The notes beneath the pieces were generated by a model. That model did not search any database. It was given only the letters and a program-made list of their open reading frames with translations, and was not told the DNA's origin. The translations under genes were made by a program, and so were the position numbers. Shown one piece after another: positions 6,632 through 63,557 of a stretch of DNA of 64,000 nt. Source of the DNA: a phage; NCBI GenBank assembly GCA_020241865.1, contig GCA_020241865.1_4709.1; one strand, given 5' to 3'. Every line of letters begins with the position of its first letter. Within the stretch, counting starts at the first letter, position 1.

Positions 6632-9625
6632 ATGAGCGTAACCAACAAAGATCTTGCTGAACAGCTCAATCGCTATATGCTTTCACCTATTGAAATGCAG
6701 GCTATTGCAAGCGATATGATCCGTTTGGCCTCTGATGGCGAGTTAACCCTGGTTGACCCCAGCTGTCCGTTTGTTTATCTGCTGGAGGTTGCAACGGCAA
6801 CGGCTGCGAACCAGAACGCGCGGGATGAGTCCCGTGTTCGCGAACTGTATCCGAAGCTTGCAACCAACTGGAGCCAGCTCTATCGTTGGATGTATGACGA
6901 GTCGTACGTCGGACGTTTCGCAATGCCGGGTAAAACGGAAATCATTTATTCGTTAGGGTATCAGGAAATCCTCGATCGCGCTGTAGAGATTCCCAACACC
7001 ATCGCCTCCGATGATTTAAGCCGTTCTTACAGCCGTAAGTTAGTGATACCACGTACGACAGCGTTTACGGTAGCCGGAATGGATTTCGGGTTACATTATC
7101 CCATCGAAATCCAAGTACAAGCGCACGACCAGATCCGCGTCGTTTATAACACCGATAACATCAGCCCATTGCAAACCTTGGAGAGTAACCAAGTTGAGTA
7201 CGGGGTTGTTCGTGTAAAAGCGGGTAAAGTGTTGGTGATGCGTATCCCGCTGTTCCAGTTTAAAACACTGGTAAAAGATGTGCCGTTTAACAGCGTTCAC
7301 GGGATGAACAGCAGTATTACCTTCGAAGATCAGTTTTACCATTGTCGTGCGTACATGTCGTCAGATAACGATACCTGGACGGAGATAGCGACAACGCACA
7401 GTCAACAGATCTACGATCCGTTAACACCAACCATCGCGTTACAAGTAGAAGGGAACAAACTTAACTGGCGTGTTCCTGAAATTTATTTGTCTCAAGGTAC
7501 GATGGATAAAAGCACCATTCGACTTGAGGTGTTGACGACGAAAGGGAAAATCAGCGTCGACCCGTCTGATTACGACGTGACCGATTGGAAAGATAACTAC
7601 ATCGATCTGTCGCCAAAAGCCGAACAGAAATACAGTGCGCCGCTAAGTGCATTCAACATTAAAGGGATTTATAGCGAAGGGGCGTTGTCGGGTGGGCGAT
7701 CCGCGTTAACGTTCGAGGAACAACGTGAACGCGTTATGGCTGGCGTGAACAAAACCAAGGTGCCGATCACGGGAACGCAGGTAGAGCTGGTGCTTCAAGA
7801 TGCGGGCTACGGGATGGTGACCACCATCGACAACGTAACCAATCGTTCGTTCCTGGCAACCCGAGATTTACCGCAATTGAGCGACAGCGTGCCGCAAGCC
7901 GGTTCGTTGATGGGGTCTTTCTATACGTCAGCTGCAGCATTGGTGAAAAGTAAGTTTGTCGCCGATAACGGCGATCGTATTACGATTAAACCTGACTGCC
8001 TGTATCGCGACAGTAACGGAAGTATCACGCTGTTGTCGGACGATGAAATTGACCGTATTAATGCGGGCAACTCCGATGCGAAGTTGAATGCGGTAAACAA
8101 CGCCATGTTGTTTTACAGTCCGTTTCATTACGTATTAGATGCGACAAGCGATTTCGACATCCACGCTTATTACCTGGATGCCCCTAAGATCGGCACGCAA
8201 GCATTCCTCGACGCGAACGAGACAATCCCGTTAACCGCTATGGTGACCGGATACCGTCTGGATCGTATCGCTGAAGGATATCGTCTAAGCCTCATTGTAG
8301 AAGGTAACGACGCATGGAAGGCGCTCGACGATAAAAACGTGCATGTGCAGCTAGGATTCAATCCGCGGGGTGAGGGCGATTATGCGACGATGTTGGCATC
8401 GCCTACAACCGATGAACAAGGTCGTCGTTTGTTCACCTTCGATATCACCACGAACTATGATTTTACACGAATCCTGGCTGATGATTCCACGGCGTATGAA
8501 CCGTATATCGCATTGACCTCTTTCTCGATGTATGAATCGACACCGCGGGCTTACTGGGCATCACTGCAGCAGTATTTGGAAATCTTCCATGTGGTGACGG
8601 ATTATGCGCCGGAAGATGTCGACGGTATTTTACACAGTGCTTCCGATAATTACCTGGTTAAGAAACTCACGCTTCAAAATGGGTATTGTTTCTACCGTGA
8701 ACGTCTCACCGCAACCTTTGGTTATGATCTGGATGGTCTTTGGATGCGTTCTCGTACGGTGGCCTCGGAGATCACGTATAAACGTTACACCGAGAACATT
8801 CCATGGGTGTATGATGAAGATATTCCAGCGACGGATGAGACCGGTTCTGTTATCATTGAGCAAGGCGATGATGGTACGTTGTCGGTTAAATATCTGCATC
8901 GTAAAGGAGATCCGAAATTAAACAGTGATGGGAGCCAAGCCTATCGTTACCTGAAAGGCGACATCATGAAAGATAATTACGGTAATCCGATCCCCGTCGA
9001 TGAACGTGAGGTTCTGCGTAACCTGGACATGTTCTTTATTGATGCATCGTATCTGTTAGCGAACGATACAGACGTGATTGAGTATCGTAATGCGATTCCT
9101 ACGCAGCTTATCGAATGGATCCAGAACGATATCGACACGTTCATGAATTTCTGTTATGAAGAAACAGAGATTTCACTGTATCCTAAACAATCGCTGGGGT
9201 ATGTGGATGTGATTGTGGAAAACGGATTGGAAACGACGCTTCCTGCTGCCCTATCGTTCAACGTAACACTGTACTTACCAGCTAAGCAATACGCTGACCT
9301 GGATTTACGTCAAGTCCTTCAAGCGATGGTGTCGAAAGTCATCAATGAATGCTTGACATCCCGTACAGTAGCTAAAGCAGAAATGATCGCGATGATTCGT
9401 GAGGAAGGAGGTGACGACATCCTGAACGTTGAAATCGATGATTTTGGACCAGGTAAGAACCTCAGTGTTTATACCGCGAAGAACGACGGTGTTCGTTGTG
9501 CGGTGAAGAAAGAGCTTTATGTGAAAGCGGATGGTATCTTGTCCGTACGTGAAGCGATCGATGTAAGTTTTGTGAAACATGCACAAAGCAACAGTTCAGC
9601 GCTAGCACAAGGCCTTCGTGTCTAA
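6632..9625 (+). CDS. large hypothetical protein (997 aa)
   Basis: long uninterrupted ORF immediately after 5423..6628; followed by convergent GC hairpin. Confidence 0.8.
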   Translation: MSVTNKDLAEQLNRYMLSPIEMQAIASDMIRLASDGELTLVDPSCPFVYLLEVATATAANQNARDESRVRELYPKLATNWSQLYRWMYDESYVGRFAMPGKTEIIYSLGYQEILDRAVEIPNTIASDDLSRSYSRKLVIPRTTAFTVAGMDFGLHYPIEIQVQAHDQIRVVYNTDNISPLQTLESNQVEYGVVRVKAGKVLVMRIPLFQFKTLVKDVPFNSVHGMNSSITFEDQFYHCRAYMSSDNDTWTEIATTHSQQIYDPLTPTIALQVEGNKLNWRVPEIYLSQGTMDKSTIRLEVLTTKGKISVDPSDYDVTDWKDNYIDLSPKAEQKYSAPLSAFNIKGIYSEGALSGGRSALTFEEQRERVMAGVNKTKVPITGTQVELVLQDAGYGMVTTIDNVTNRSFLATRDLPQLSDSVPQAGSLMGSFYTSAAALVKSKFVADNGDRITIKPDCLYRDSNGSITLLSDDEIDRINAGNSDAKLNAVNNAMLFYSPFHYVLDATSDFDIHAYYLDAPKIGTQAFLDANETIPLTAMVTGYRLDRIAEGYRLSLIVEGNDAWKALDDKNVHVQLGFNPRGEGDYATMLASPTTDEQGRRLFTFDITTNYDFTRILADDSTAYEPYIALTSFSMYESTPRAYWASLQQYLEIFHVVTDYAPEDVDGILHSASDNYLVKKLTLQNGYCFYRERLTATFGYDLDGLWMRSRTVASEITYKRYTENIPWVYDEDIPATDETGSVIIEQGDDGTLSVKYLHRKGDPKLNSDGSQAYRYLKGDIMKDNYGNPIPVDEREVLRNLDMFFIDASYLLANDTDVIEYRNAIPTQLIEWIQNDIDTFMNFCYEETEISLYPKQSLGYVDVIVENGLETTLPAALSFNVTLYLPAKQYADLDLRQVLQAMVSKVINECLTSRTVAKAEMIAMIREEGGDDILNVEIDDFGPGKNLSVYTAKNDGVRCAVKKELYVKADGILSVREAIDVSFVKHAQSNSSALAQGLRV

Positions 9626-9687: not shown

Positions 9688-12600
9688 TTATCTTACGTTA
9701 TTGCTGTTCTGCTGTTCGCTGAACCAACCATACACCTTGAGATCGGTACCGTATTTCAACGCGATATACGCATTCAGCGCAGCACAGAACAAAGACGCGA
9801 ATGCCCATATCAGCGAAGGATCAACATCTTCCGTTACCATTGGGAGAGTATTATCCGGTTCCCATGATGGAGAACTGTCCATGAACGTTGCGTACCATCC
9901 CCGCCGTTGTTCTTCGGTGGTAAAGTCGCTATGGGGTTCCAATGCTTCTTTTGCCAGACGTCGATATTCGAACATATGCGTTGCTAAAGCCGATGAGTTA
10001 CCAGATTCGCCTTCATAGTTCGGATCCACCGCATAACAGAGTTCTGTGGAATCTAACAAAGCAACCGCCTGTGTGATGTTGTCGGCAGTGCCTGCACCAT
10101 AGAGCTCGATAGACCGCGAAAGCTTTTCACAGAACGCATTTAACGCGGAAGGATTGGACACCTGAAGGTCAAGGCCTAATGTCCACGGATAGTTACTGAA
10201 TACGCCCGTAAACCGCGGCATAACACCCAACAGATGTTGTCCGATTACAGCACGGTTATAAACAGCCCGGTTATAGACTTGAAACGCAGCCTCCAAAGCT
10301 TGGTTATAATGACGACGAAGTTCGTCACGCGAGTTGCGGAATCTGTTTGCCGCAAGACTTGTGGCTGCGACGCTACAAACATCGTAATTGGTGGACGAGA
10401 GCACAGTTTCGTTAAGATCGAACGATTCCTGTTTCAACGATCCGCTAACCGCTGCTGCTTCGCTGTTTGCTTTATCGACAACAGTACTCAAAGCGTTGAT
10501 GTAACGTTTAGCTCGGACTTCCAGCCATTGTGCGATACCGAGAATATCCACCGCGGCTTTAGCAAGATCGCGTGCATTCACGATTTCGTTCTTCAACGCC
10601 CCTAAACCTTTATTTTCAGGCGTTGAGGCTTGTTGACGAATCATACTGTTCAACATGGTAAGCAGATTATCCAACTCATGTCCGCTGACCTTGTTGCGCG
10701 CATCGGTAATCGGCCCTTGCAGGAATTTACGACAACCGTCATTATACCGAATCAGTTTATCCACGTCGATGGATTCGTTCGTGGTTTCCTTGAACTGATT
10801 CTTTAATTCTTCACGGTAGTCGTGTATCTCGCTTGTAAGATTATCAACGGTGATACCATTGTGACCAAGAAGAACTTTACTGAAGTTGCCCTTCTCGAAC
10901 GCCAGTGCGATGTCTTCACGAATCTTAGCCAGTTTATCCTGATCTAATTCACGACCGTTTGACAGTTCTTTCACTTCAGCACTGATTATTGCTGCAACCG
11001 TTCCAAGGTTATCGGTAACCCCTTTGAACGTGCTTGACCAAACACTTCCCGCTTCAGCGTATTTTGCGATGGTCTGGATACCGACGCTATGTAACGACGC
11101 TAAACGTTTCTTCGTACCTTCGGTAAGCAATGCATCTTTAGCTCGCGTAAGTTGACTGTTATTGGCTTCCGCTTGCTGGATGGCCGCTTTCGCATTCCCG
11201 TTACGCCAGCTCTTAACCAACCAATCGACCAAACGTTTCAGGATGTTGATGGTATATTCCATCGTACGTCGTAACGTTTCCCATGCGCTTTCAGCGGTAT
11301 AGATCCCACCAACAGTGTACCCTTCCATCTTCAGCGCTTTGGTATCGGTTTGACGTGCCAACCATTCTACCGTCGCAGAACAAACGTTTACGAACGCCTC
11401 CAGGTAGTTGTAATAGGCCTCTGTTGCGGAGGTTTCGTTGAGCTTCGAATGCAGATAAAACTGTTCGTATAGCTCGTCGTCATCACCGAAGGCGTCGTAG
11501 TTCCACAGTTCGGTATCGCAGCCGGTACCACAGAAGACATCCGCCGTTGTAAACTCCTTAAGTGCTTTCGTTGCGTCGTTGGTCAGGAATTTACCTGTCT
11601 CAAGTACGTCGTCAACATTAAGTCTCGGGAGTTCGTCAGTAATTGGGTTTTCCAGCATCAACGTATTGAAGAACACGCTGTACTTGTATCCAAGCCATTT
11701 TGGATAACTGTTTTCAGATATCGTAGACGCCGGTTTGATTTTCTTGGCTTCAGCCAACGTGTCTTCTGCAACCTGATATTGGTTTTCCCCAGCTTTGATA
11801 CGTCGTAATGCTTTTTCTTCCAACTGTTTGAGTTTGGTGTGCCGTGCTTGAGCTGGAGCCTCAACCAGTTTTTGTACCGACCGCATGGCGGAAATCGCTT
11901 CTTTCAATGTGGTGATCGGCATACGAACTTTACCGTCATCGAAACTCAGCGCGCGAGCAATACGTCGACTTACAACAGGTTCGGTATGGATGTTTCTTTC
12001 TACCCACGATTTGTTTGCGTAGGTTTGCGTGATTTGCTGCTGGATCTTTTCAAGATAGCCCCAGCTTTTGGATGCTTTGCCGTCCAAAAGCGGATTAGGT
12101 CCTTTCTTATCAAAAAGCTTTTTGATAGGATCAAAGAAACCTTCTTGCACGAGATCGATACGGGTGTAACCATCAGCTGCTTCGATTTCTTCTTGGGTTT
12201 TATCCCAGAAGTCGTCGCTCTTTGCAGCAACCGCTGTATCTTTAATGTCCAGGATGATCTGACCCACCGTTTGCGCAAACAGCAAGGCCGCACGTACCGA
12301 TTGTGCGAACATCCGCTGATATTTGATTCGAACGCATTGCATCTGGGTTAGCAGATTCAGTTGCGCGATCCCATCCAAGGTGCTATCTTGAGCAAGTCCT
12401 TCAGCCTTAGCGATAACCTGTTTTACACGTTCAGCGACATCAACGTATTGCTGGCATACATCCCGCAGAATACGTGCTGCGAAGACCCCGGTACCGATAT
12501 AGTTCAACAGGTCTTTTAATGACCATTCAGACGGACAATCGGCTGGTGCGGTAGGGAGTAAGCAACCATCACCGTCCATGAATCGCTCTAATGCACTAAT

Positions 12601-13281
12601 ATCCTGATTTTCTACTCTCATGGGGATATCAGCATCAGCGGCTTGCAGATCCAGCATCTGTTGTAGGATGTTGGTATCGGTTTGCACAAGCGTCGCAAGC
12701 GCTTGGCTGTGTGCGATTATTGGTAACGCTGGTGACCATACTGCAGCAAGCTTGTCGGCGTGACGTTGAATGGCATACCCCATATCCTCGATCACATCGG
12801 GATGCTCGATAACCCCCTGAAGCGTTTGATGTAGCTCACCGAGTTGCTGAGACAGATCGACCATCATGGTGTTGAAGGTTTCGCCATCCTCTTTGTGGTT
12901 GTCCAGACGCTCAAGTTCATGTTGAAGCAATGCGACGAGCTGTCCGTTGCCTTCTTGCTTCAGCTTGCTTTCCATTAACGTAACGGCTTTATCGACGATC
13001 TGGCACGCTTCACGAAAACCGGTTGTGGAAGGAAGCTCTGTCCATAACGCCAGCGGTTTACCGTCAAGGGCTTCCGGCATCGATAACGAAAGCATAGACA
13101 GTTGTTGACGTGATACTTGCTGTTCACGGTGTAATGTTTCTTTTAACGCCAAGAGATCGTCAAGAAACGCGCCGTTAAGGGTGGTCGTACGCGGTGTTGA
13201 ATTAATACCGTCAGTTAACGATTCAAGCACCAGGAGACCGTTATCAGCTGAAGAGAGTCCCGCGGCAAGATATTTGTTCAT
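9688..13281 (-). CDS. large hypothetical protein (1197 aa), possible virion or tail-length/ejection protein
   Basis: long ORF; ATG 13281 with GGAG RBS; no catalytic motif recognised. Confidence 0.8.
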   Translation of the reverse strand: MNKYLAAGLSSADNGLLVLESLTDGINSTPRTTTLNGAFLDDLLALKETLHREQQVSRQQLSMLSLSMPEALDGKPLALWTELPSTTGFREACQIVDKAVTLMESKLKQEGNGQLVALLQHELERLDNHKEDGETFNTMMVDLSQQLGELHQTLQGVIEHPDVIEDMGYAIQRHADKLAAVWSPALPIIAHSQALATLVQTDTNILQQMLDLQAADADIPMRVENQDISALERFMDGDGCLLPTAPADCPSEWSLKDLLNYIGTGVFAARILRDVCQQYVDVAERVKQVIAKAEGLAQDSTLDGIAQLNLLTQMQCVRIKYQRMFAQSVRAALLFAQTVGQIILDIKDTAVAAKSDDFWDKTQEEIEAADGYTRIDLVQEGFFDPIKKLFDKKGPNPLLDGKASKSWGYLEKIQQQITQTYANKSWVERNIHTEPVVSRRIARALSFDDGKVRMPITTLKEAISAMRSVQKLVEAPAQARHTKLKQLEEKALRRIKAGENQYQVAEDTLAEAKKIKPASTISENSYPKWLGYKYSVFFNTLMLENPITDELPRLNVDDVLETGKFLTNDATKALKEFTTADVFCGTGCDTELWNYDAFGDDDELYEQFYLHSKLNETSATEAYYNYLEAFVNVCSATVEWLARQTDTKALKMEGYTVGGIYTAESAWETLRRTMEYTINILKRLVDWLVKSWRNGNAKAAIQQAEANNSQLTRAKDALLTEGTKKRLASLHSVGIQTIAKYAEAGSVWSSTFKGVTDNLGTVAAIISAEVKELSNGRELDQDKLAKIREDIALAFEKGNFSKVLLGHNGITVDNLTSEIHDYREELKNQFKETTNESIDVDKLIRYNDGCRKFLQGPITDARNKVSGHELDNLLTMLNSMIRQQASTPENKGLGALKNEIVNARDLAKAAVDILGIAQWLEVRAKRYINALSTVVDKANSEAAAVSGSLKQESFDLNETVLSSTNYDVCSVAATSLAANRFRNSRDELRRHYNQALEAAFQVYNRAVYNRAVIGQHLLGVMPRFTGVFSNYPWTLGLDLQVSNPSALNAFCEKLSRSIELYGAGTADNITQAVALLDSTELCYAVDPNYEGESGNSSALATHMFEYRRLAKEALEPHSDFTTEEQRRGWYATFMDSSPSWEPDNTLPMVTEDVDPSLIWAFASLFCAALNAYIALKYGTDLKVYGWFSEQQNSNNVR

Positions 13282-13294
13282 AAAACACTCCGTT

Positions 13295-13328
13295 GGCCTA
13301 GGGGAAGGTTTTCAGCCTTCCCCTAGGG
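13295..13328 (-). terminator. 12-bp perfect-stem hairpin between 13341..16136 and 9688..13281
   Basis: CCTAGGGGAAGG-loop-CCTTCCCCTAGG followed on minus strand by RBS and ATG. Confidence 0.5.
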
Positions 13329-13340
13329 TTATAAACACAA

Positions 13341-16136
13341 TTAAGCTAATTTACCGAAACCGGCTTTTTGCAGTTTCTCGTTGATGATTTTCGCTTCAGC
13401 GAAGACGTAATCGCGGTAGGCGGTCACTAACGCATCCACACGTGAACGCAAGGCTTCTTCGAAGCTATACCACGCTGCGATTTCACGAATCTGTGCGTTG
13501 ATATAATCAACGGTTGAGCGAAGCTCGGTTGCGTTTTCTTGCGGAACGGCTTTCACCTGGCGAGCAACGTCATTTAAACGGCGGAACTGTGTTTCGATTT
13601 CTTTAAACTTACTGTCGGCAAGTTTGCTGAATTCGTCACCAGAACGGGTAAATAACAGATAGCTGTTGCCGTCAAGTGCGGTCGCTAACTGCTGAAGTAC
13701 GTTGGTGTCCGGATACACAGGAGTACCGCTTTGCAGTACTTTCTCACCGAATTCCGCGAAGTCCTTCGGTGGTAAGTGTGCAGACGTTGTCAATTCGTTG
13801 AAACGGAAAGTCAGCGAATTATCATACAGCATCCGGTACGCTTCCATACCCTGTTTCATGGTACCGGCCAGGTTAGCCAGACGCGGAGCAATCTCGCCTT
13901 CTTTAGCGCGTTTCTGGTCTTCTAACGCCCCTTCGAGTTCTTTACACTGGTCGTTCAGATACACGATACGATCAGGACGTAGACGACGCATCTCACGAAG
14001 AATAGTATCCAGCTTACCTTCCTGGAAATAACCCAACGTTAAAGACGTACACGCTTGCTGAAGACGATCGAACACCGGTAAGGTTACCATCTCCTTACGG
14101 ATACCATCAACAATCGCAGAAACAGCCGAAAGTTTCTGTTCTGTAGTCAATGGAACATCAGAGGCCGACTTGCTGGGTGCACCAACAACGTTACGCATTG
14201 CGTCGGTATCCTCGGTTTTATCAACCTCTTTACGAACATGCTCATCAGGAACATAAACGTTCGCGTTACGTTTCGCCTGCTTGATGGCGTCGTTGGCCGC
14301 TTTTTCGGTGGCCGCTACGCTATCGGCACGTTTCTTCAAGAGTTCAATAATCCAGAGCAACAGACGACGAATCGCAGTGTAGGCTGTCGTGATGATGACA
14401 CCGATAACAGCCATCTTCATGATACCGAACGATTCCATGGTCGGCTCTAACGCTTGGTCTGGCATATACCGTTCACGCAGCTCCAGATAGATCTGCTCAT
14501 CTGGTTTGCTGACCTCACCACGATGCGAAGTCCGATAAATGGCTTCGTCAATCTCAACAAGATCTTTGCGTGCCTGACGGTCAGATTCTGTTAGGTAAGC
14601 ACAACCGGATACGTCGTCTTCGAAGCTTAAGAATTTGAAAAAGTCACTGACGTCGATCTTGATCTTCTTCGCTTCATTATCGACATCGATAACATCTTTT
14701 TTCTGTGCCTGATATTCCGCTTTGATGTCGTTCACCGGCTTCAACGCACGTTCTTTTAATACCTGCACGATCTGTTTCCAGTCGGCGTCACGCTCAAGAA
14801 CAAGGAAGTAATTCTTGAGTTCAAAAGCACGGTAACGCGCAACGAGTTGTTCTACCTGAATATGAGCGAGTTGCACATCCATCAGCCAACGCGACATTGC
14901 TGAGATCAAACGGCTATAAGCAAGCAATGTCTGATATGTTAGCTTCATGTGCTTTTCGTACAGCTCAATATCGCCGTCTTGAATATCAGCCGTTGGGTTC
15001 ATTTCCTTCGTTGCTTTGAAGATCTGTTCGGCCTCATTTAACGTTTGTTCGAATTTGACTTCATTAAACGTGTCAAACGGTTCAGCCAACTCCATCATTC
15101 GATCGTGAAGCTCACGAACCCAGGCTTCCTTATTGTTGCGAATAGCTGCGTCATCGTGAAGTTCAGTTTGATGTTTCTGTACCCATTCTTCGACGATATC
15201 AGCGGCGGCAACAATTCCTGTACCATCGGAAACTAACGGAACAACTCCAGCAAGTACGCCTACACACGCCGGGGTTTTCCAATAATCGTTCAAAGCGTTT
15301 CTGAATTCAACGATGGATTGTACGTTTGGTACCGTATCCAAAAACGTACTGCCGTTACGGCTCATTGTCGTTACGATATCAGCGAATTCCTTCTGCTTAG
15401 CGGTAACAAAAGGAACCAGGACCATAAGCCATTCAGCAACCGACTTCGCTTTCTCTTTCAGATTTTTGTCAGCGATTTCCTTAAGGTTTATCGCACCACC
15501 GTAACCTGCAAGCTCTTTATATACGTCGCTAAGGGTCATCTGTTTATCCAACATTTCTTTGAAACGTGGGTAATCAGCACCTAACGCATCGACAATATCG
15601 TTGATTACGTCATCAGTTGTTGCGATAAACTTCTTCGTATCAACGTTTGAATATTTCCAGACGTATCGTACTGCTTTCTTGATTCCTGCAAAGATAAACG
15701 CCCAGATACGCTTGATGAGTTCCCAGACTTTCTTCGCGCCATCGACAAACAGTTTAGAGACCTTGGCAACGAATCCTTCCTGCACCAATTCAACGCCGTT
15801 ACGTGATGGGATTTCCGTGAAGAAAGCATCCGGCAGTTGTTTCGGGAATGCGTCACCAAGACGCATACGCAGTTCCGGTACATCAGCACGAGAAATACCG
15901 CGTGTTACTAATTGTTCGTGAAGACGAACGTTTTCTTCACCAGAGGTCACGAATTCGTCAACATCGAAGGAGACCATTGTTTCCTGATCTTCGGTGGTAA
16001 CGACGCTTGAACCATCACTGGTTTGGATGTCTTCGTCAGGGAATGCCATGAGCATACCGTGACGCATTTCAACCACCCCGTAATCGGTTGCTAAACCGAA
16101 TTCGTTGTGGTCTGGGGTAATAACTGGGATACTCAT
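13341..16136 (-). CDS. large hypothetical protein (931 aa) with internal hydrophobic (TM-like) segment and coiled-coil-like regions
   Basis: long ORF; hydrophobic stretch IMKMAVIGVIITTAYTAI; 4-bp overlap with upstream gene. Confidence 0.8.
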   Translation of the reverse strand: MSIPVITPDHNEFGLATDYGVVEMRHGMLMAFPDEDIQTSDGSSVVTTEDQETMVSFDVDEFVTSGEENVRLHEQLVTRGISRADVPELRMRLGDAFPKQLPDAFFTEIPSRNGVELVQEGFVAKVSKLFVDGAKKVWELIKRIWAFIFAGIKKAVRYVWKYSNVDTKKFIATTDDVINDIVDALGADYPRFKEMLDKQMTLSDVYKELAGYGGAINLKEIADKNLKEKAKSVAEWLMVLVPFVTAKQKEFADIVTTMSRNGSTFLDTVPNVQSIVEFRNALNDYWKTPACVGVLAGVVPLVSDGTGIVAAADIVEEWVQKHQTELHDDAAIRNNKEAWVRELHDRMMELAEPFDTFNEVKFEQTLNEAEQIFKATKEMNPTADIQDGDIELYEKHMKLTYQTLLAYSRLISAMSRWLMDVQLAHIQVEQLVARYRAFELKNYFLVLERDADWKQIVQVLKERALKPVNDIKAEYQAQKKDVIDVDNEAKKIKIDVSDFFKFLSFEDDVSGCAYLTESDRQARKDLVEIDEAIYRTSHRGEVSKPDEQIYLELRERYMPDQALEPTMESFGIMKMAVIGVIITTAYTAIRRLLLWIIELLKKRADSVAATEKAANDAIKQAKRNANVYVPDEHVRKEVDKTEDTDAMRNVVGAPSKSASDVPLTTEQKLSAVSAIVDGIRKEMVTLPVFDRLQQACTSLTLGYFQEGKLDTILREMRRLRPDRIVYLNDQCKELEGALEDQKRAKEGEIAPRLANLAGTMKQGMEAYRMLYDNSLTFRFNELTTSAHLPPKDFAEFGEKVLQSGTPVYPDTNVLQQLATALDGNSYLLFTRSGDEFSKLADSKFKEIETQFRRLNDVARQVKAVPQENATELRSTVDYINAQIREIAAWYSFEEALRSRVDALVTAYRDYVFAEAKIINEKLQKAGFGKLA

Positions 16137-16573
16137 GCATTCTCTCCTTGCAGTGCGTTAGCGAAAGCCGTTGCGAGTTGCGCAACCAGCTTAGGATCAA
16201 CACCTTCGATAACGTCGGGCAGCCCTGCGGTTTCTTGGTCACGAACGGCGGAGGCTAATAACAGCATGGTTTCAGGTGCGGTCGGCTCATGCACCATGCG
16301 GTAACGCAGGCACCAGAAGTAGCGGGCAACGTCTAACGCATCGGCCAGCCCAATAACCAGTACCTTGTTCAGCTTATCCAGCCCTTCACGGATTTTAGGG
16401 AGATGTTCGCGAACGAAAATGCTATCTGCGGTCAGATCTTCTTTTTCAGCGAATACGGGCATGCTGTAACCAGCGATATAACCTGCGGCAATACTTAGCG
16501 CACGGGTCTGTTGTTCGGCTGGGAAATCACGTACCAGGTCTTTCAGCTGAACGGCGAAATCAGAAATATTCAT
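16133..16573 (-). CDS. hypothetical protein (146 aa)
   Basis: ORF translationally coupled (ATGA) to downstream gene. Confidence 0.65.
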   Translation of the reverse strand: MNISDFAVQLKDLVRDFPAEQQTRALSIAAGYIAGYSMPVFAEKEDLTADSIFVREHLPKIREGLDKLNKVLVIGLADALDVARYFWCLRYRMVHEPTAPETMLLLASAVRDQETAGLPDVIEGVDPKLVAQLATAFANALQGENA

Positions 16574-16605
16574 GTTAAATTCCTTTATAGTAAAAATAGA
16601 AGAGA

Positions 16606-17916
16606 TTAGGCGATAATGGAGTCAAGAGTCGCTGCGGTTTTGAACAGATCGCTGTTCATTGTAGAAGAAAGGACTTGCTGAATTTCTTCCTGTTTAACCG
16701 CTTTACGAACCCCAGGACGAAGGATAAGCGTAACCATCTGTGAAAAGGTACGATTATTGTTCATCGCACTCAGCGTTTCATCGATTGTTTTGATGGCATC
16801 CAGCGTCATGGAACGAACATCGCTTGGGATATCACGATCTTTCAAGCGTATAATTAAATCTTGTTTGATTTTACGGAATCGTTCCATGTCGTTATCGTAA
16901 ATGCTGTATGTCGGATCTAACCAAACAGAAAGCGCGGTTACAGCGACAACAACCAACACGCCGATAGCACCAACAGAAGCTAAACCTATCGCCATCATAG
17001 AAGCTATAGTAGCATCCATGATGAAGGAGAGCCAGAACATCGTTTTGGACTTCACGGAGTCTTTGCTATAAAGCCGATACATTTTAGCAAGCCCGCTAAC
17101 GAGATACTCCCCACCGCCATGACGCGTAGCGAACTGATCAGCCATGAATTCGGAAGCAACGTCGGTATATCGTCCAGCGTTGTTTACGTTTCTTAACTGC
17201 ATCGCTCTGTTAGACACGTAAACCGTGTACCAGACACTACCGTCGTCTGAATCACTGATTTTGTCTACGTCGACGTTGGTATCCAACGTTTTGTTTAACG
17301 CTTTCGCCAGTTCGATACGTTTTACCTTATCGGTTGTCCCCAACAGTTCACGCTGTACGGTCATGATTGAGGCTTCGACACGAACCGTTTCCGACAATGT
17401 TTCAAGGAAGGTAAATGCGTGCCCGATTTCATGCAGCATTATGGCTGCTTTTTCTTCCGGAAGAAAGGGTTCTGTCGCCGTTAGCAGTTCATACGTGATG
17501 GCAGAACGAATCTTCAATTCTTCAAAAATACCGTAAACACGACCTTTTTCTAAATCGACGTAACCGACAGGTGTATCTTTAATCTTCTTAAGGAGCGTAA
17601 CACCATCAGCACCGCGCATCCATAACCGATGATAGTCTGCCAGGATTGTGTTGTTTGTCGAAATATCCGGCGGGTACACGTAGGCATTCATCCGGCCCAT
17701 TTTCACGTCGACCGAGAATTCGATGTTCAACCCCGTATAGCGTTTAACCATCTCGGTTAAACGACCGTCCTTGAAAACGTTTAAAACCTCTTTTTTATCC
17801 AGTCCCTGTTTGCTTCTGAAGAACTCGGTCATTTCCTTGAACAAGGAACCATCTTGAAACTTGATGGCCTCCATCGTTAATTCGTCATGACCATACACGC
17901 GTTGTAGTAATGACAT
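16606..17916 (-). CDS. M48-like zinc metallopeptidase with C-terminal transmembrane segment
   Basis: HExxH motif (MLHEIGHAF) followed by ExxADxF-like third-ligand motif (SEFMADQFATRHGGG); hydrophobic stretch MMAIGLASVGAIGVLVVVAVTALSVWL. Confidence 0.75.
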   Translation of the reverse strand: MSLLQRVYGHDELTMEAIKFQDGSLFKEMTEFFRSKQGLDKKEVLNVFKDGRLTEMVKRYTGLNIEFSVDVKMGRMNAYVYPPDISTNNTILADYHRLWMRGADGVTLLKKIKDTPVGYVDLEKGRVYGIFEELKIRSAITYELLTATEPFLPEEKAAIMLHEIGHAFTFLETLSETVRVEASIMTVQRELLGTTDKVKRIELAKALNKTLDTNVDVDKISDSDDGSVWYTVYVSNRAMQLRNVNNAGRYTDVASEFMADQFATRHGGGEYLVSGLAKMYRLYSKDSVKSKTMFWLSFIMDATIASMMAIGLASVGAIGVLVVVAVTALSVWLDPTYSIYDNDMERFRKIKQDLIIRLKDRDIPSDVRSMTLDAIKTIDETLSAMNNNRTFSQMVTLILRPGVRKAVKQEEIQQVLSSTMNSDLFKTAATLDSIIA

Positions 17917-17927
17917 TGTACACTCTC

Positions 17928-17945
17928 TAAATTTACGTAAATTTA
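17928..17945. promoter_or_regulatory. perfect 18-bp palindrome TAAATTTACGTAAATTTA in divergent intergenic region, 12 bp upstream of the metallopeptidase start codon
   Basis: perfect dyad symmetry; position typical of operator or translational-repressor site. Confidence 0.4.
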
Positions 17946-18137
17946 AGGGTTCATGGATCGGCTGGCCGCACCAATCACAATGTGTCCGCTGCTATGCAAC
18001 GGCATTCATAGAAATACCTTTTGACGGTAACATCACCGTTCATACCCCAAGCAATAAGAGTGGTCGGTTAAAAACAACAGAACGTGAGGATGATATAGAA
18101 AATCACCTTTTAACACTTATTACGAGTTTATCAAGCC

Positions 18138-19889
18138 ATGAGCGAACAAGAACGAAAACCTAAGAAGAAACTGCTCGGTATTCAATGTCGACACATCAGC
18201 TATAACGAAGCGAACGATGGCAGCAAGAACGACCTCATGATCGCAAAAGAGATCATGTTCTTCGATGATAATACGCAAGCGACGAACCTTCGCTTCTTCG
18301 AGAATTACAAACGTCCGTTTTGGGTGACGGTAGAGAGTAAACGTAAGAACAAATATAAAAAGGAAAGCGAGAAGCTCTCGCATGTGCGTCGCTACGATGT
18401 CCGCCAAAGCGAACTGGTTGAAAAGATCAGCTCGGTACTTTATAAAAGACGTGCTGACGATAACACCCGTTTACAGCAGCTTGCACGGAGTCCATACCTC
18501 TATGGAACGGACGTTAGCGCCAGCTGTTATTTAAAAACCCAGTACAACACAAAATGGCCGGAATACGTCGATAAATTACCCGCTTCCATTGCCTGTTTCG
18601 ATATCGAAACCGACGTTGTCCACGGACACGGTAAGATCGTTTGTATGTCTATTACAATGGGATACAATGCGATACTTTGCTATACCAAGGACTTCGTTGG
18701 TCATATTCCGAATGCCATTGAGAAAACCCATGAGAAGATTCGATATTACCTGGCCGAACGTCTGAATACCAAAGAAGATCCCCACGCATTCGAAAAATAT
18801 CAGTACGATGTTCGAATCGTAGAAAGCCCGGCACAAGCGGTCATCCAATGCATGCAGAAGGTTCACGAATGGCAGCCGGATTATCTCCTTGGCTGGAATA
18901 TCGCGTTCGATATTCCGCGCATGCTCCAGGCACTGAACGAGGAAGGGTATCGTCCCGAGGATGTTTTCTCCGATCCCCGTATACCACCTAAATATCGTAT
19001 TGCTCGCTGGGTACCACCGAAGACCGACAAGGTATCTGCTTCAGGTCGTAAAACCAACCTTACCCTTGAGCAAACCTGGCCGATGTTTTATACGATGGCT
19101 ACGTATCAGGTTATGGATGCGATGTGTGGCTATAAGTTCGTTCGTTTAGGAAGACCGGATGAAGGACGCTATTCACTCGATGCGGTGTTAGAGCGAAATA
19201 AATGCCATACGAAATTAAAAGCTATTCCTGGTACAGAGGGGTTCACGGAGCTTGCCTGGCACGAAGAGATGCAAACGAACCATCAAATCGACTACGGCGT
19301 ATATAACCTTTGGGATAACCAGGGTATTGAGGCGTTGGACCAGAAAACAAAAGACTATTCGATGACCATCCCTATCCGTTTAGCGGCGTCGGATTTGAAA
19401 GATTTCAGTTCTAACCCTAAACGTATCTGCGATAAACTTTTCTTCGTTTATCTTAACCGTGGGGAAGTCATGGGATGTACCGCTGACGACATGACCCAGG
19501 AAGAAGATAAGTGGGTTATCTCACGAGCTGGACATATCGTCACATTACCATGCGATCTCATGGCTGACAACGGCATTCATCTCTTCTGGGATATGCCGAA
19601 CCTGAGAAGTTATATCCGTCTATTCGTTGCAGACCTTGACATTAGCAGTTCATACCCGAATGGGCAGATCCTGTTGAATCTATCCAGAGCGTGTGTTTTT
19701 CGCGAGCTCTCACGCATTGAGGGCGTCTCTGACTATCAATTCAGGAAGTTAGGTATCAACTTTATTACCGGAGGTAAAACGAACGCTGTAGACTTCTGTA
19801 GAATCGTTTATAAAGCACCATCGATGTTTGAACTTTTAGAACATTTCGATGCAACGCGTCCAAAAGAGGAAGCGCGGACCATCGAATGA
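18138..19889 (+). CDS. DEDDy-type 3'-5' exonuclease domain protein, likely N-terminal part of a split family-B DNA polymerase
   Basis: Exo I (FDIETD), Exo II (GWNIAFD) and Exo III (YSLDAVLE) motifs in canonical order and spacing; motif-A-like DLDISSSYP near C-terminus; ORF ends before motifs B and C. Confidence 0.7.
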   Translation: MSEQERKPKKKLLGIQCRHISYNEANDGSKNDLMIAKEIMFFDDNTQATNLRFFENYKRPFWVTVESKRKNKYKKESEKLSHVRRYDVRQSELVEKISSVLYKRRADDNTRLQQLARSPYLYGTDVSASCYLKTQYNTKWPEYVDKLPASIACFDIETDVVHGHGKIVCMSITMGYNAILCYTKDFVGHIPNAIEKTHEKIRYYLAERLNTKEDPHAFEKYQYDVRIVESPAQAVIQCMQKVHEWQPDYLLGWNIAFDIPRMLQALNEEGYRPEDVFSDPRIPPKYRIARWVPPKTDKVSASGRKTNLTLEQTWPMFYTMATYQVMDAMCGYKFVRLGRPDEGRYSLDAVLERNKCHTKLKAIPGTEGFTELAWHEEMQTNHQIDYGVYNLWDNQGIEALDQKTKDYSMTIPIRLAASDLKDFSSNPKRICDKLFFVYLNRGEVMGCTADDMTQEEDKWVISRAGHIVTLPCDLMADNGIHLFWDMPNLRSYIRLFVADLDISSSYPNGQILLNLSRACVFRELSRIEGVSDYQFRKLGINFITGGKTNAVDFCRIVYKAPSMFELLEHFDATRPKEEARTIE

Positions 19890-28968: not shown

Positions 28969-29064
28969 ATCCACTCCGATGCGGTAAATGTCTACTAGCT
29001 CTCATAATCTATTGAAGAAACTACCAGCTTACGCCAACTTAGATTAATCAGGAGTAACCATCCC

Positions 29065-53509: not shown

Positions 53510-53612
53510 CTTGACATCCTTTTATATTGGATTGATTGCTAATAGTTCAAGGTGAAGCTGATTACTGCATTGCTTCACCTAGGTAATATAGCCGTGAAAA
53601 TTAATGCATTAA
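53506..53612 (-). promoter_or_regulatory. conserved promoter/leader/RBS cassette, copy B (upstream of 53192..53509)
   Basis: same blocks as copy A; contains 12-bp palindrome TTAATGCATTAA, TATATT -10-like hexamer, leader hairpin AGGTGAAG...CTTCACCT. Confidence 0.55.
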
Positions 53613-53617
53613 TTTAT

Positions 53618-55033: not shown

Positions 55034-55399
55034 CTAACCTAATGAATTGCGTTTAAATAATTGGATGTATGGGGTACCAAATAAAGGACTGTATGAATGT
55101 ATTCGGTTCTCCTCTGATTCGTAATACTCGATAGGCCACGATATTGGTTTAGGTAAACGATCTAACGCTTGCAACACGGCGAGTTTAACGCTATTACTTT
55201 CGATCGGATACGGAAGTACCGTTGACGAACAGAACACACGTGTTCGATGTAAATAAATGAGATGCTGCTGTAGCTTAGACAAACGCCTACGCTTGATTAA
55301 GAAACCAGTTACGCGGCAATCGGAGTGATCGTAGTGATAACGTGCGCTATCGAAATAAACCTGTTCTCCTCTAACAATGAGATACTTTATCGCTTGCAT
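55034..55399 (-). CDS. hypothetical protein (121 aa)
   Basis: ORF. Confidence 0.55.
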   Translation of the reverse strand: MQAIKYLIVRGEQVYFDSARYHYDHSDCRVTGFLIKRRRLSKLQQHLIYLHRTRVFCSSTVLPYPIESNSVKLAVLQALDRLPKPISWPIEYYESEENRIHSYSPLFGTPYIQLFKRNSLG

Positions 55400-58452: not shown

Positions 58453-58955
58453 GCTAAAATTCCCTCATTACCTAACAGTCGATTACGGTGACGTCGGTAC
58501 ATTTGACAAAGTGTTGTGATTTGATAAAGTTTGTTATAACGTAATTCGATACGTTTTTGCACCTCTTTCCATGAAAGTTTATCATATTGCCGATAACGAT
58601 GGATTTCATTCAACATCCGAAGACGCGTAGGATCGGTATTCTTTATTGTTACGAGCTTCACGCGTTGGTATCCGCGCTGCAACCCCGATTCAGAATACGT
58701 AATGCCGAACTCATCCTGAATGATAGTAATGATCTCCCGCCATCGGCGCTTCTCGCCGTCACGTAAATGGACAACCCGCGATAAGATATCGTTCCGATTA
58801 CGATGACTCAGTTTAATGTTAAGCATTGAAGCAATCGCGCTAATTGCTCTCTGACTCCGCCCTAACGCCTCACCGATCTCTTTCGATGTCATGACGCCAG
58901 CGTTTCGACGTATGAATGCGATTTCGGTTGTTGTGTATTCTTTACCTGCCGCCAT
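58449..58955 (-). CDS. HTH DNA-binding protein, member 1 of six-gene paralog array
   Basis: YTTTEIAFIRRNAGVMTSKEIGEALGRSQRAI HTH repeat plus two WxEIxxxIxxEF...Y...LxQxY repeats; overlaps upstream paralog. Confidence 0.65.
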   Translation of the reverse strand: MAAGKEYTTTEIAFIRRNAGVMTSKEIGEALGRSQRAISAIASMLNIKLSHRNRNDILSRVVHLRDGEKRRWREIITIIQDEFGITYSESGLQRGYQRVKLVTIKNTDPTRLRMLNEIHRYRQYDKLSWKEVQKRIELRYNKLYQITTLCQMYRRHRNRLLGNEGILA

Positions 58956-59503
58956 TTCTTACCACGCGTGTTATAATAGTAACGTTGACAAAGATGTGTG
59001 TGATGGTACTCCCGTTTGAACTCGACATTGATAATGCGAGCAACTTCTCTCCAGCTAACCCCTTCATGTCGAAGTGTCGTGATACGGTCTGAAATTTTGC
59101 ACCATTCACCAGGATCGTATCGTCGCAGTTTATGACGTCGTATTACGGAGGCGACGCTCGCTTTCGAGCGACCAAGATGATTCGACATTCGTTTAATCGA
59201 GTATCTATGGATATTATCGCGAATATAGGAAAGCTCGTTGTCTGTATACGTCGCGTTGGTTCTCGGCGAAGGGAACAATACGTATAACTTATTCTTAATC
59301 GCGCTTTCTGTGCGTTGAAACACGGTAACCAGTTCACTAATCGATGGTCTAGGTATTTGATACGCGTAATTCTCGAGGCGTGAGAGTTCCTCATCTGTCC
59401 AGCGGCGGTATTTGCGCATGGGCAACTCCTTTGTTTTTCGTGTAATAACACCAACGTTGATACAACGCATGTTTATTCGTTGTAATCCCAAATTTAACAA
59501 CAA
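58889..59503 (-). CDS. Myb/SANT-like HTH protein, paralog 2 (true start probably near 59422)
   Basis: RWTDEELSRLENY (Myb-like), YTDNELSYIRDN...LGRSKASV, WREVARIINVEF...LCQRYYY. Confidence 0.65.
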   Translation of the reverse strand: MLLNLGLQRINMRCINVGVITRKTKELPMRKYRRWTDEELSRLENYAYQIPRPSISELVTVFQRTESAIKNKLYVLFPSPRTNATYTDNELSYIRDNIHRYSIKRMSNHLGRSKASVASVIRRHKLRRYDPGEWCKISDRITTLRHEGVSWREVARIINVEFKREYHHTHLCQRYYYNTRGKKWRQVKNTQQPKSHSYVETLAS

Positions 59504-59894
59504 CGTCGTATGTGATAATATTCCAATTTTGGGTGACGTTAAGTCGTTCCGCGATAAACGCGATAATCGCTTCCCGTTCTTGCTTGGTTAACGCACGACG
59601 AATTCCATTAAGCCGTATAAACTGACGAACCGAGTCATACGAACGGTTTAAATCATACGCAATCTCCCTCAGCGATTTTTGTTTGATTACGGACTTGATG
59701 TACGCACGTTCTTCTTCCGTATACGGTCGATGCTTCTGGCGTTGACGTATTCCCAAACGCCCCAGACACGCGTCGATGCTGGCGTATGTTCGTCCTGTCC
59801 GTTGTGCGATTTCATCAATCGTCAGCGGCGTGTTCAAGTACATGTGTGTAACATCTTTTAACTCATCGTTACGCCACGGCCGAGGTCGTCGCAT
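59391..59894 (-). CDS. Myb/SANT-like HTH protein, paralog 3
   Basis: three-repeat architecture shared with neighbours. Confidence 0.7.
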   Translation of the reverse strand: MRRPRPWRNDELKDVTHMYLNTPLTIDEIAQRTGRTYASIDACLGRLGIRQRQKHRPYTEEERAYIKSVIKQKSLREIAYDLNRSYDSVRQFIRLNGIRRALTKQEREAIIAFIAERLNVTQNWNIITYDVVVKFGITTNKHALYQRWCYYTKNKGVAHAQIPPLDR

Positions 59895-60372
59895 CTTGTA
59901 TCCCTCTTTTCTTTCTATGATGCCACCAACGCTGATAAACAGCTTGCTTCGTCCGTGTTATGCCAAAATGCGCATTAACCCGTTCAGCAATGTGGTACCA
60001 ATCCTGCGTTTCTTCTAACAATGCATCAACGAAGGCTATGAAGATCTTAGTATCATCCTCGCTTAACCGCTTGAAGCCATGGCGGTGTGCTATTGTTCGA
60101 ATACTGTTTGGATCTCTGTTTAAATCGCGTGCGAGCTGTTTGTAACTTTTGTGCTTACAGTGTAGTCTGATATGTTCTAATTCATCGACGCTGAAACGTT
60201 TATGCGGTTTACGGCGTTCGACGTTTAAGTACCTCAACCTTGATTCGATTGCACCGTACGTCGTTTCCATGATTTCCGCGATTTCACGGATTTTTAATTT
60301 CGGGCGACGATCGTATAGTTTCAGCAACTGCTCATCGTACTTACGATTCCATCGTCGTACTGGGGGTTTCAC
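59869..60372 (-). CDS. Myb/SANT-like HTH protein, paralog 4
   Basis: three-repeat architecture shared with neighbours. Confidence 0.7.
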   Translation of the reverse strand: MKPPVRRWNRKYDEQLLKLYDRRPKLKIREIAEIMETTYGAIESRLRYLNVERRKPHKRFSVDELEHIRLHCKHKSYKQLARDLNRDPNSIRTIAHRHGFKRLSEDDTKIFIAFVDALLEETQDWYHIAERVNAHFGITRTKQAVYQRWWHHRKKRGIQDATTSAVA

Positions 60373-60374
60373 AA

Positions 60375-60854
60375 CTAGATTTCTCCTGTTCTACGCGTTT
60401 TTAATGCTTGAGTGTAGTAAAGGGTATGAACACCGCTTAACGTGTAATGGGTGTTAAATTCGTTATTGATGATATTCTGTATTCTCTCCCAGGTTTTCTT
60501 CTCTTTTCTAAGAGTATGTATTCGGTGATAGATCATCTCTCGACGTTGCGCTTTGCACGCGATAATACCGTAGCGGTAGCAGAGTTTAGCGATCGCATCC
60601 ACGCTACGATTGAACATTACCGCGGCTTCTTTCACGCTGTGCGTCTTGAGATAATCGGCTAACATCACGCGTTCTTCGAAACAACAATAGCGGTGACGCG
60701 ACGTGAGTTTCCAGCGCTTGCGATTACGGTTAATTCGACCTTGAACCGAACCTTCCGTTCGGCCAAGTCGTACCGCAATCTCTTGCATCGGTATACCGTT
60801 TCGGTACAGGGTAATCAACATCGCATCTTCTTCGGGTGTCCAGTCCTTGACCAT
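60375..60854 (-). CDS. Myb/SANT-like HTH protein, paralog 5
   Basis: WTPEEDAMLITLYRNGIPMQEIAVRLGRTEGSVQGR is a close match to a Myb repeat. Confidence 0.7.
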   Translation of the reverse strand: MVKDWTPEEDAMLITLYRNGIPMQEIAVRLGRTEGSVQGRINRNRKRWKLTSRHRYCCFEERVMLADYLKTHSVKEAAVMFNRSVDAIAKLCYRYGIIACKAQRREMIYHRIHTLRKEKKTWERIQNIINNEFNTHYTLSGVHTLYYTQALKTRRTGEI

Positions 60855-60866
60855 AATGCCACCCCA

Positions 60867-63557
<2,691 letters not shown>

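Follow-up and report, generated by a model that had tools for sequence, protein, structure and literature searches.

What function, if any, does a perfect 18-bp palindrome have when it lies directly in front of a phage operon, in a gap between two divergent transcription units? The question arose in a 64,000-nucleotide stretch of phage DNA (contig GCA_020241865.1_4709.1), referred to here as the window. An initial annotation made from the letters alone had proposed that the palindrome is an operator, most simply for a dimeric helix-turn-helix (HTH) regulator. Between positions 16000 and 20500, a nucleotide comparison gives the window 94.8% identity to Escherichia phage vB_EcoM_Goslar, a member of Goslarvirus and a nucleus-forming jumbo phage (chimallivirus) with a 237-kb genome. 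The sequence context of the palindrome can therefore be read against a known relative.

In nucleus-forming jumbo phages, transcription control is known at the level of two RNA polymerases and short promoter motifs (PMC4666361, PMC7598289). phiKZ-type phages have three promoter classes and can dispense with the host RNA polymerase (PMC7598289, PMC4666361), and phiKZ development is rifampicin-resistant, relying on two phage RNA polymerases (PMC4666361, PMC7598289). Early genes are transcribed by the virion RNA polymerase from a conserved A/T-rich motif near −10 (PMC7598289, PMC4666361), and late genes by the non-virion polymerase, with the start at the G of TATG (PMC4666361, PMC7598289). In phiKZ, middle promoters have the motif AAanTTACc with its center some 24 nt before the start (Yakunina et al. 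2015, PMC4666361), and may involve a DNA-binding factor (PMC4666361). By analogy with phiKZ, transcription in the window's phage is probably host-independent as well.

The divergent gap and its flanking genes

The gap had been singled out as the only sizeable divergent one in the window, and it is indeed the largest that is truly divergent (Table 1), the next having 96 bp (28969-29064). To its left, a minus-strand unit of four co-oriented genes (9688..17916) begins with a gene whose product shares 91% amino-acid identity with Goslar gp067 and is also a homolog of phiKZ gp84, a virion protein. To its right is a DNA polymerase gene. Upstream of the four-gene unit and of the polymerase gene there is otherwise only antisense coding DNA, so both promoters are bound to lie in or next to the 221-bp gap. 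The gene layout thus firmly bears out the description of the gap as a divergent control region.

Neither flanking gene codes for a DNA-binding protein. The first gene of the leftward operon had been labeled a metallopeptidase. Its HEIGH sequence fits the HExxH motif, but the protein matches no Pfam peptidase family, even at E ≤ 10. It has no sequence relative in the PDB and falls into PHROG 2767, a family of unknown function. In the window and three metagenome loci (L018-L020), the polymerase gene runs without interruption. The Goslar gene is divided by a 1.76-kb insertion that carries a NUMOD1/HNH endonuclease gene (6640-8400 of locus L001, which is Goslar 81190-82950). The polymerase protein match stops at residue 499-503 in Goslar and in five further loci (L021-L023, L026, L027); the corresponding point in the window's gene is at about 19632-19640. 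From its sequence, the Goslar insertion resembles a mobile intron that is present in some genomes and absent from others, with diverged exon sequence where it joins the gene; Rfam gave no group I intron model there.

Within the gap, we rejected a small plus-strand ORF (17953-18024, 23 codons, behind TAAATTTAAGGG) as a gene. Its GGG-to-ATG spacing is 3 nt, and the ATG becomes ACG in one of the haplotypes described below (L022); the other changes in it are one non-synonymous and two synonymous. No tRNA and, at gathering score, no Rfam family was found in the window, and the sole Rfam match at E ≤ 1 was a plant miRNA, which is meaningless here.

Table 1. Coordinates of features in and around the divergent gap, numbered from the first letter of the window.
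Feature	Position	Strand	Description
gp067 homolog	16606..17916	−	436 aa; HEIGH motif and hydrophobic segment
Divergent gap	17917-18137		221 bp, between ORFs 16606..17916 (−) and 18138..19889 (+)
Spacer	17917..17927	−	Palindrome to start codon; weak Shine-Dalgarno-like GAGAG at 17923-17927; TGTACA
Palindrome	17928-17945		TAAATTTACGTAAATTTA, 18 bp
Longest invariant run in gap	17990..18024		35 nt; dyad CTATG (17992-17996)...CATAG (18007-18011)
Variable spacer	18025..18053		12 of the gap's 28 variable columns; splits two conserved blocks
TGATATAGA	18091..18099	+	"Extended −10" of the initial annotation
Family-B DNA polymerase gene	18138..19889	+	phrog_3011, E 8e-178; single-gene unit
HTH paralog cluster	58889-61337	−	About five small proteins; Sigma70_r4_2, Myb, HTH_23, HTH_28 or HTH_38

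The palindrome and its chance expectation

The palindrome equals its own reverse complement over all 18 bp, as had been described. It consists of the half-sites TAAATTTAC and GTAAATTTA, and 16 of its 18 bases are A or T. It can also be read as two copies of TAAATTTA, a self-complementary octamer, with a 10-bp period. Because the octamer is self-complementary, an 18-bp palindrome results automatically when two copies flank a central CG at a distance of one helical turn. Eleven bases separate it from the minus-strand ATG (17916-17914), and it adjoins the GAGAG, the sole Shine-Dalgarno-like run there.

The 18-mer occurs once in the window, even when 3 mismatches are allowed, and once in the 237-kb Goslar genome. 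The number of such palindromes expected in the window's intergenic DNA is 0.0115 when sequence is shuffled in 20-nt blocks that keep local composition, and 0.05-0.09 across all Goslar intergenic DNA. Under these intergenic nulls the palindrome exceeds chance. Since the expectation is low, any claim that its symmetry is incidental depends on the octamer-duplication argument. Whole-window Markov simulations, on the other scale, produced a perfect palindrome of at least 18 bp in 25% of runs, and the window contains three, one of them intragenic.

The second intergenic one, AAATTAATGCATTAATTT (53598-53615), is also perfect, 18 bp long and AT-rich, and adjoins an early promoter-like site. The Goslar counterpart is imperfect, and three Goslar-like IMG/VR genomes all lack the exact 18-mer. 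The symmetry of AAATTAATGCATTAATTT is best read, from these sequences, as incidental; being confined to its own genome, it indicates that perfect palindromes do form incidentally in this lineage. A 20-bp perfect palindrome, TATCAAAAAGCTTTTTGATA (12108-12127), lies within the minus-strand gene 9688..13281 (1197 aa) and is missing among the Goslar palindromes of at least 14 bp.

We found no sign that the sequence recurs as a family. The TTACGTAA core occurs 13 times against 10-12 expected from a Markov model and is not enriched. With up to 2 mismatches, TAAATTTAC is in twofold excess only, equally on both strands, as A/T-rich DNA predicts, and the 14-mers of the gap revealed no motif in common with other gaps. 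With the 18-mer unique and its half-site non-recurrent, no regulon is visible; we rejected one because half-site, core and gap 14-mers all fail to recur beyond composition.

The predicted structures are weak. As RNA, the palindrome forms a hairpin of −0.2 kcal/mol alone and −2.5 kcal/mol in context, no better than shuffles. In plus-strand RNA, its stem reaches into the flanks and gives −5.8 kcal/mol (z −1.6), and the DNA hairpin has −2.1 kcal/mol, with z −4.75 against shuffles. Neither strand of the whole gap folded more stably than shuffles (z −0.69 and 0.0), and the gap holds no Rfam family; a structured RNA was rejected on these grounds. An intrinsic terminator was rejected too: the stem is all A-T rather than G+C-rich with a T run, and a terminator scan was silent at the palindrome. 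Since the flanking genes diverge, there is also nothing to terminate at this point.

Conservation among relatives

Conservation, which the initial annotation had named as a check, holds for the near relatives and fails for the distant ones. We collected ten distinct Goslar-like haplotypes of the gap by protein-based searches that were independent of the palindrome. Across them the palindrome has no substitution, and it is missing from the distant phages PhiEaH1, RAY and SPLA10. One haplotype, L022, has one additional A in the left arm; this breaks the outermost pair and leaves a 16-bp palindrome. In the alignment of the ten, 28 of 222 columns are variable; at 12.6% variable columns, the probability of zero substitutions in 18 nt is about 0.09. 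The invariant run around the palindrome has 21 nt, and runs elsewhere in the gap have 35, 25 and 24 nt. Positions 17917 and 17918, in the spacer next to the start codon, vary.

Identity to Goslar is 96.8% in the target gap, 90-100% in other gaps of the window and 93.7% in coding DNA. As the flanking non-coding sequence and other gaps are equally conserved, we set conservation aside as evidence for the palindrome itself. The gap as a whole is a different matter. In a four-genome comparison, 7% of its columns varied, against 18-25% of third codon positions, and this roughly threefold lower variation shows that the gap DNA is under some constraint.

Among the available relatives that carry the palindrome, identity is 91% or more for gp067 and 98% or more for the polymerase. 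The next gp067 homologs after this Goslar-like set are at most 32% identical, and the phage, IMG/VR and metagenome collections yielded no relatives of intermediate divergence. The divergent arrangement of polymerase and gp84-like genes is kept in the Erwinia phages PhiEaH1 and RAY and in Salmonella phage SPLA10. No palindrome with arms of at least 6 bp was found in these three at the start of the gp84-like gene.

Outside the genus, exact copies of TAAATTTACGTAAATTTA occur in nine unrelated IMG/VR contigs (L029-L039). They are intergenic in all nine, and several lie 2-36 nt from a start codon. A composition-matched palindrome used as a control gave 12 stretches, 5 of them intergenic, and a non-palindromic control of the same composition gave 5 stretches, all inside ORFs. 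Because palindromic controls are equally frequent in viral contigs, these occurrences point to a general intergenic tendency of A/T palindromes and provide no evidence of a shared operator family. A viral operator family built on the 18-mer was accordingly rejected.

Promoter motifs in the gap

The initial annotation had also pointed out a TG-N-TATAGA element as an extended −10. TGATATAGA is present on the plus strand, but it is neither sigma-70-like nor recurrent. An extended −10 was defined as TGn followed by a hexamer whose second base is A and whose sixth is T; a −35-like hexamer usually lies 16-18 nt before it. TGATATAGA ends in A, not T. TATAGA does not recur upstream of Goslar genes. 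A sigma-70 promoter was rejected, as the scan returned no site on either strand in 17700-18400 against 1.1 expected in shuffles. Since phiKZ-type phages transcribe without the host RNA polymerase, a sigma-70 reading probably does not apply to a Goslar-like phage in any case.

For early promoters, an early-type motif, TTTCACGGCTATATTAC..GTGA, emerged de novo when upstream regions of Goslar genes were screened for enriched k-mers. The six CTATATTAC sites in the Goslar genome all lie upstream of genes, among them the chimallin gene. We took an early promoter to have, some 10 nt before the start, a conserved A/T-rich core; in Goslar this is TATATTAC, flanked upstream by TTTCACGGC or an A-tract and downstream by GTGA. 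The early-promoter-like motif was seen as TTAATCCAACATTTTTCACGGCTATATTAC(T/C)T..GTGA and in an A-tract form, ATTGAAAAAAAT..CAGG..TATATTACCT, to which the site that precedes the chimallin gene by 73 nt belongs. Early-like sites lie at Goslar 2560, 113790, 142793, 166062, 172971, 201937 and 226688, all on the minus strand. The gap contains no TATATTAC core, and the sole copy in the window is at 53583-53590 (minus strand). AAATTTAAGGGTT, on the right-hand side of the palindrome, agrees at 13 of 14 bases with the upstream half of the early promoter of chimallin, AAATTTCAGGGTT. This likeness lacks the core, however, and the core positions vary among haplotypes; an early promoter in the gap was rejected.

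The palindrome does not provide a late start, since its center reads TACG, not TATG. Elsewhere in the gap, the dyad in the longest invariant run yields one TATG per strand, at 17993-17996 on the plus strand and at 18010-18007 on the minus strand, with the G at 18007. Judged by motif, this pair makes reasonable candidates for phiKZ-type start sites. The implied leaders would be 142 nt for the polymerase gene and 91 nt for the leftward operon, within or just above the 21-137 nt that is common between TTATGC and the start codon in Goslar. In the k-mer analysis, TTATGC is enriched upstream of Goslar genes, often directly after a terminator hairpin. The orientation of TATG in Goslar upstream regions, 79 sense against 63 antisense, is not discriminating.

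Two further observations concern TATG-type motifs in Goslar. Many G+C-rich terminator hairpins are directly followed by TTTATGC(C/T)G, for example at 55080-55101, 86155-86172, 110415-110507, 132985-133005, 140933-140998 and 180588-180607. From their sequence, terminator tail and start motif seem to be fused into one module between co-oriented genes. The divergent late-gene gap between gp219 and the tail sheath gene (Goslar 197079-197221) contains a mirror-image GCATAA...TTATGC about 21 nt apart and two TTTACG. It likely holds a pair of back-to-back TATG-type promoters, to go by these motifs, and makes a useful comparison for the target gap.

Interpretation of the palindrome

The reading we favor, at a probability of roughly 40%, is that the palindrome is an A/U-rich, unstructured leader segment by the ribosome-binding site of the leftward operon, and that its symmetry is incidental. 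In E. coli, A/U-rich leaders bound by ribosomal protein S1 aid ribosome loading. A phage RNA polymerase would start farther upstream in the gap, with the minus-strand TATG and its 91-nt leader as one candidate. The 18-mer would then be transcribed as a near-pure A/U, essentially unstructured stretch directly 5′ of the weak GAGAG, where it would help ribosomes to load. Selection would act on A/T richness and lack of structure, and the perfect dyad would be a by-product. We infer each of these parts, namely the palindrome's transcription, its aid to translation and the incidental nature of its symmetry.

Several results are consistent with such a leader. In composition (16 of 18) and predicted folding (−0.2 kcal/mol), the palindrome is an A/U-rich unstructured stretch 5′ of a ribosome-binding site. 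Goslar genes are 61-63% A/T at −29..−12, against 53% genome-wide, and the most A/T-rich leaders include those of PhuZ, the tail sheath, chimallin and the major head protein. The A/T-rich leader strings TTAAATTAAGGAGAG (sheath) and ATATTAAATTAGGAG resemble GTAAATTTAGAGAG in the gap, and such strings are much like the palindrome's proximal arm followed by GAGAG. We counted the L022 insertion, which breaks the outermost pair, in favor of incidental symmetry. On the other hand, only 4 of 255 Goslar genes have leaders as A/T-rich as this one, so the palindrome leader is extreme rather than the norm, and the orthologous leaders of PhiEaH1 and SPLA10 are not notably A/T-rich, which counts against this reading. 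The dyad's freedom from substitutions in ten haplotypes counts against it too.

That the palindrome is instead a DNA operator, bound by a dimer on its two 9-bp half-sites or by one two-HTH protein on the TAAATTTA repeats 10 bp apart, we consider rather unlikely. Its form suits a two-fold symmetric site of about 14-20 bp: the 18-bp dyad is perfect, has a central CG and sits in a region bound to hold two promoters. Such a dyad is improbable by chance in intergenic DNA (0.0115 for the window, 0.05-0.09 for Goslar), it has no substitution in ten haplotypes, and its exact copies in unrelated viral contigs are intergenic in 9 of 9 cases against 0 of 5 for the non-palindromic control. On the other side, flanking non-coding sequence and other intergenic gaps are conserved equally, and the composition-matched palindrome is as frequent in viral contigs (12 stretches against 12). 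The site is single in 237 kb, and searches of the window and Goslar gave no second site, no half-site family and no cognate regulator gene nearby; the neighbors are a DNA polymerase and an HExxH protein. The palindrome is missing in PhiEaH1, RAY and SPLA10 despite the common gene arrangement, and L022 tolerates an insertion in one arm. If the start is the conserved TATG, the site would lie 63-80 nt downstream (+63 to +80), an uncommon location for repressor binding. Phage proteins that could bind it are on hand, as phiKZ work leaves room for a DNA-binding factor at middle promoters (PMC4666361) and the window codes for a cluster of small HTH paralogs. Several of these have two HTH-like stretches (best match Sigma70_r4_2, E 6e-9, above the Pfam cut-off), and they are candidate DNA-binding or specificity factors by their domain matches; they lie about 40 kb from the palindrome, and nothing ties them to it. 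We know of no gene-specific transcription factors described in chimalliviruses, the nucleus-forming jumbo phages. The more specific proposal that a chimallivirus DNA-binding protein, such as one of the HTH paralogs at 58.9-61.3 kb, binds the dyad and represses or recruits a phage RNA polymerase in this control region is unlikely. If it is true, nucleus-forming jumbo phages would, to our knowledge, have their first gene-specific transcription factor with its operator, or else the specificity factor still missing for middle promoters.

The arms also invite a promoter reading, in which two back-to-back middle-class elements drive divergent starts near 17956 (plus) and 17916 (minus). Both arms read AAATTTAC (17929-17936 on the plus strand, 17944-17937 on the minus strand) and fit all defined positions of AAanTTAC, with motif and −24 position taken from phiKZ (PMC4666361). 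The polymerase gene is plausible as a middle gene, and the 13 of 14 matching bases between AAATTTAAGGGTT and AAATTTCAGGGTT may be added. We nevertheless judge this improbable. The motif, besides being short and degenerate, was matched post hoc. Upstream of Goslar genes, AANNTTAC occurs 12 times in sense and 13 times in antisense orientation against 7.6 expected; being unoriented and not clearly enriched, it makes no promoter class visible, and the twofold excess of TAAATTTAC at up to 2 mismatches is of the A/T type, equal on both strands. The minus start would fall on the start codon, giving a leaderless mRNA with the GAGAG untranscribed, the plus-start bases 17950, 17952 and 17954 vary among haplotypes, and the early core TATATTAC is missing from the gap. 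There is a slim chance that the palindrome has no selected role and is a chance or slippage-derived A/T-rich repeat with too little time to diverge among close genomes. The carriers are indeed at least 91% (gp067) and 98% (polymerase) identical, zero substitutions are only mildly unlikely at about 0.09, a palindrome of at least 18 bp arose in 25% of whole-window simulations, and the second palindrome at 53598-53615 is transient; the intergenic expectation of 0.01-0.09 and the roughly threefold lower variation of the gap (7% against 18-25%) speak against it. Very improbable is a structural switch. At the RNA level it would be a hairpin that masks or exposes the ribosome-binding site; at the DNA level, a cruciform or hairpin that signals a promoter or an origin. 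The dyad can form a 7-bp stem closed by an ACGU loop, the DNA hairpin stands out from shuffles (z −4.75) and, in plus-strand RNA, pairing continues into the flanks (−5.8 kcal/mol, z −1.6), but stability is very low (−0.2 kcal/mol for RNA, −2.1 for DNA), the stem takes in neither the Shine-Dalgarno run nor the start codon, and there are no iterons or further repeats.

The palindrome is real, genus-conserved and statistically unusual, and none of the results connects it with a regulator. We would class it as a putative cis-element of a phage divergent control region, and as an ordinary one unless start-site mapping or a binding assay indicates otherwise. If it is only an A/T-rich leader, it is ordinary as biology and matters mainly for annotation and for the design of expression cassettes in Goslar-like phages. 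As a unique conserved dyad between a polymerase gene and a virion-protein operon, it would also be a cheap and well-defined probe for a gene-specific or middle-promoter factor.

Comparison with known systems

Dyad-symmetric operators of dimeric HTH repressors are known from Cro and CI of lambda, 434 and P22, and LacI-family sites have a central CG. The palindrome resembles them in its perfect two-fold symmetry over about 18 bp, its half-sites one turn apart, its central CpG and its place in a divergent promoter region; it differs in being single-copy and in having no adjacent regulator gene. Each of its arms, AAATTTAC, is like the phiKZ middle-promoter motif and lies in a gap bound to hold phage RNA polymerase promoters, but upstream of other Goslar genes the motif neither recurs nor keeps to one orientation, and the implied minus start would coincide with the start codon. 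The A/T-rich stretch and the AGGGTT after it recall the upstream half of the chimallin promoter and thus the Goslar-type early promoter, whose invariant TATATTAC core is missing in the target gap. The phiKZ-type late TATG has its counterpart in the TATG motifs elsewhere in the gap.

A/U-rich translational enhancers 5′ of the Shine-Dalgarno sequence occur in mRNAs of E. coli and coliphages, for example in the leader of T7 gene 10, and are bound by S1. The palindrome shares with them its position 5′ of the ribosome-binding site, a near-pure A/U composition, a predicted lack of structure and an E. coli host. These enhancers do not require a palindromic form, and the palindrome described here is, by its sequence, a candidate leader of the same kind.
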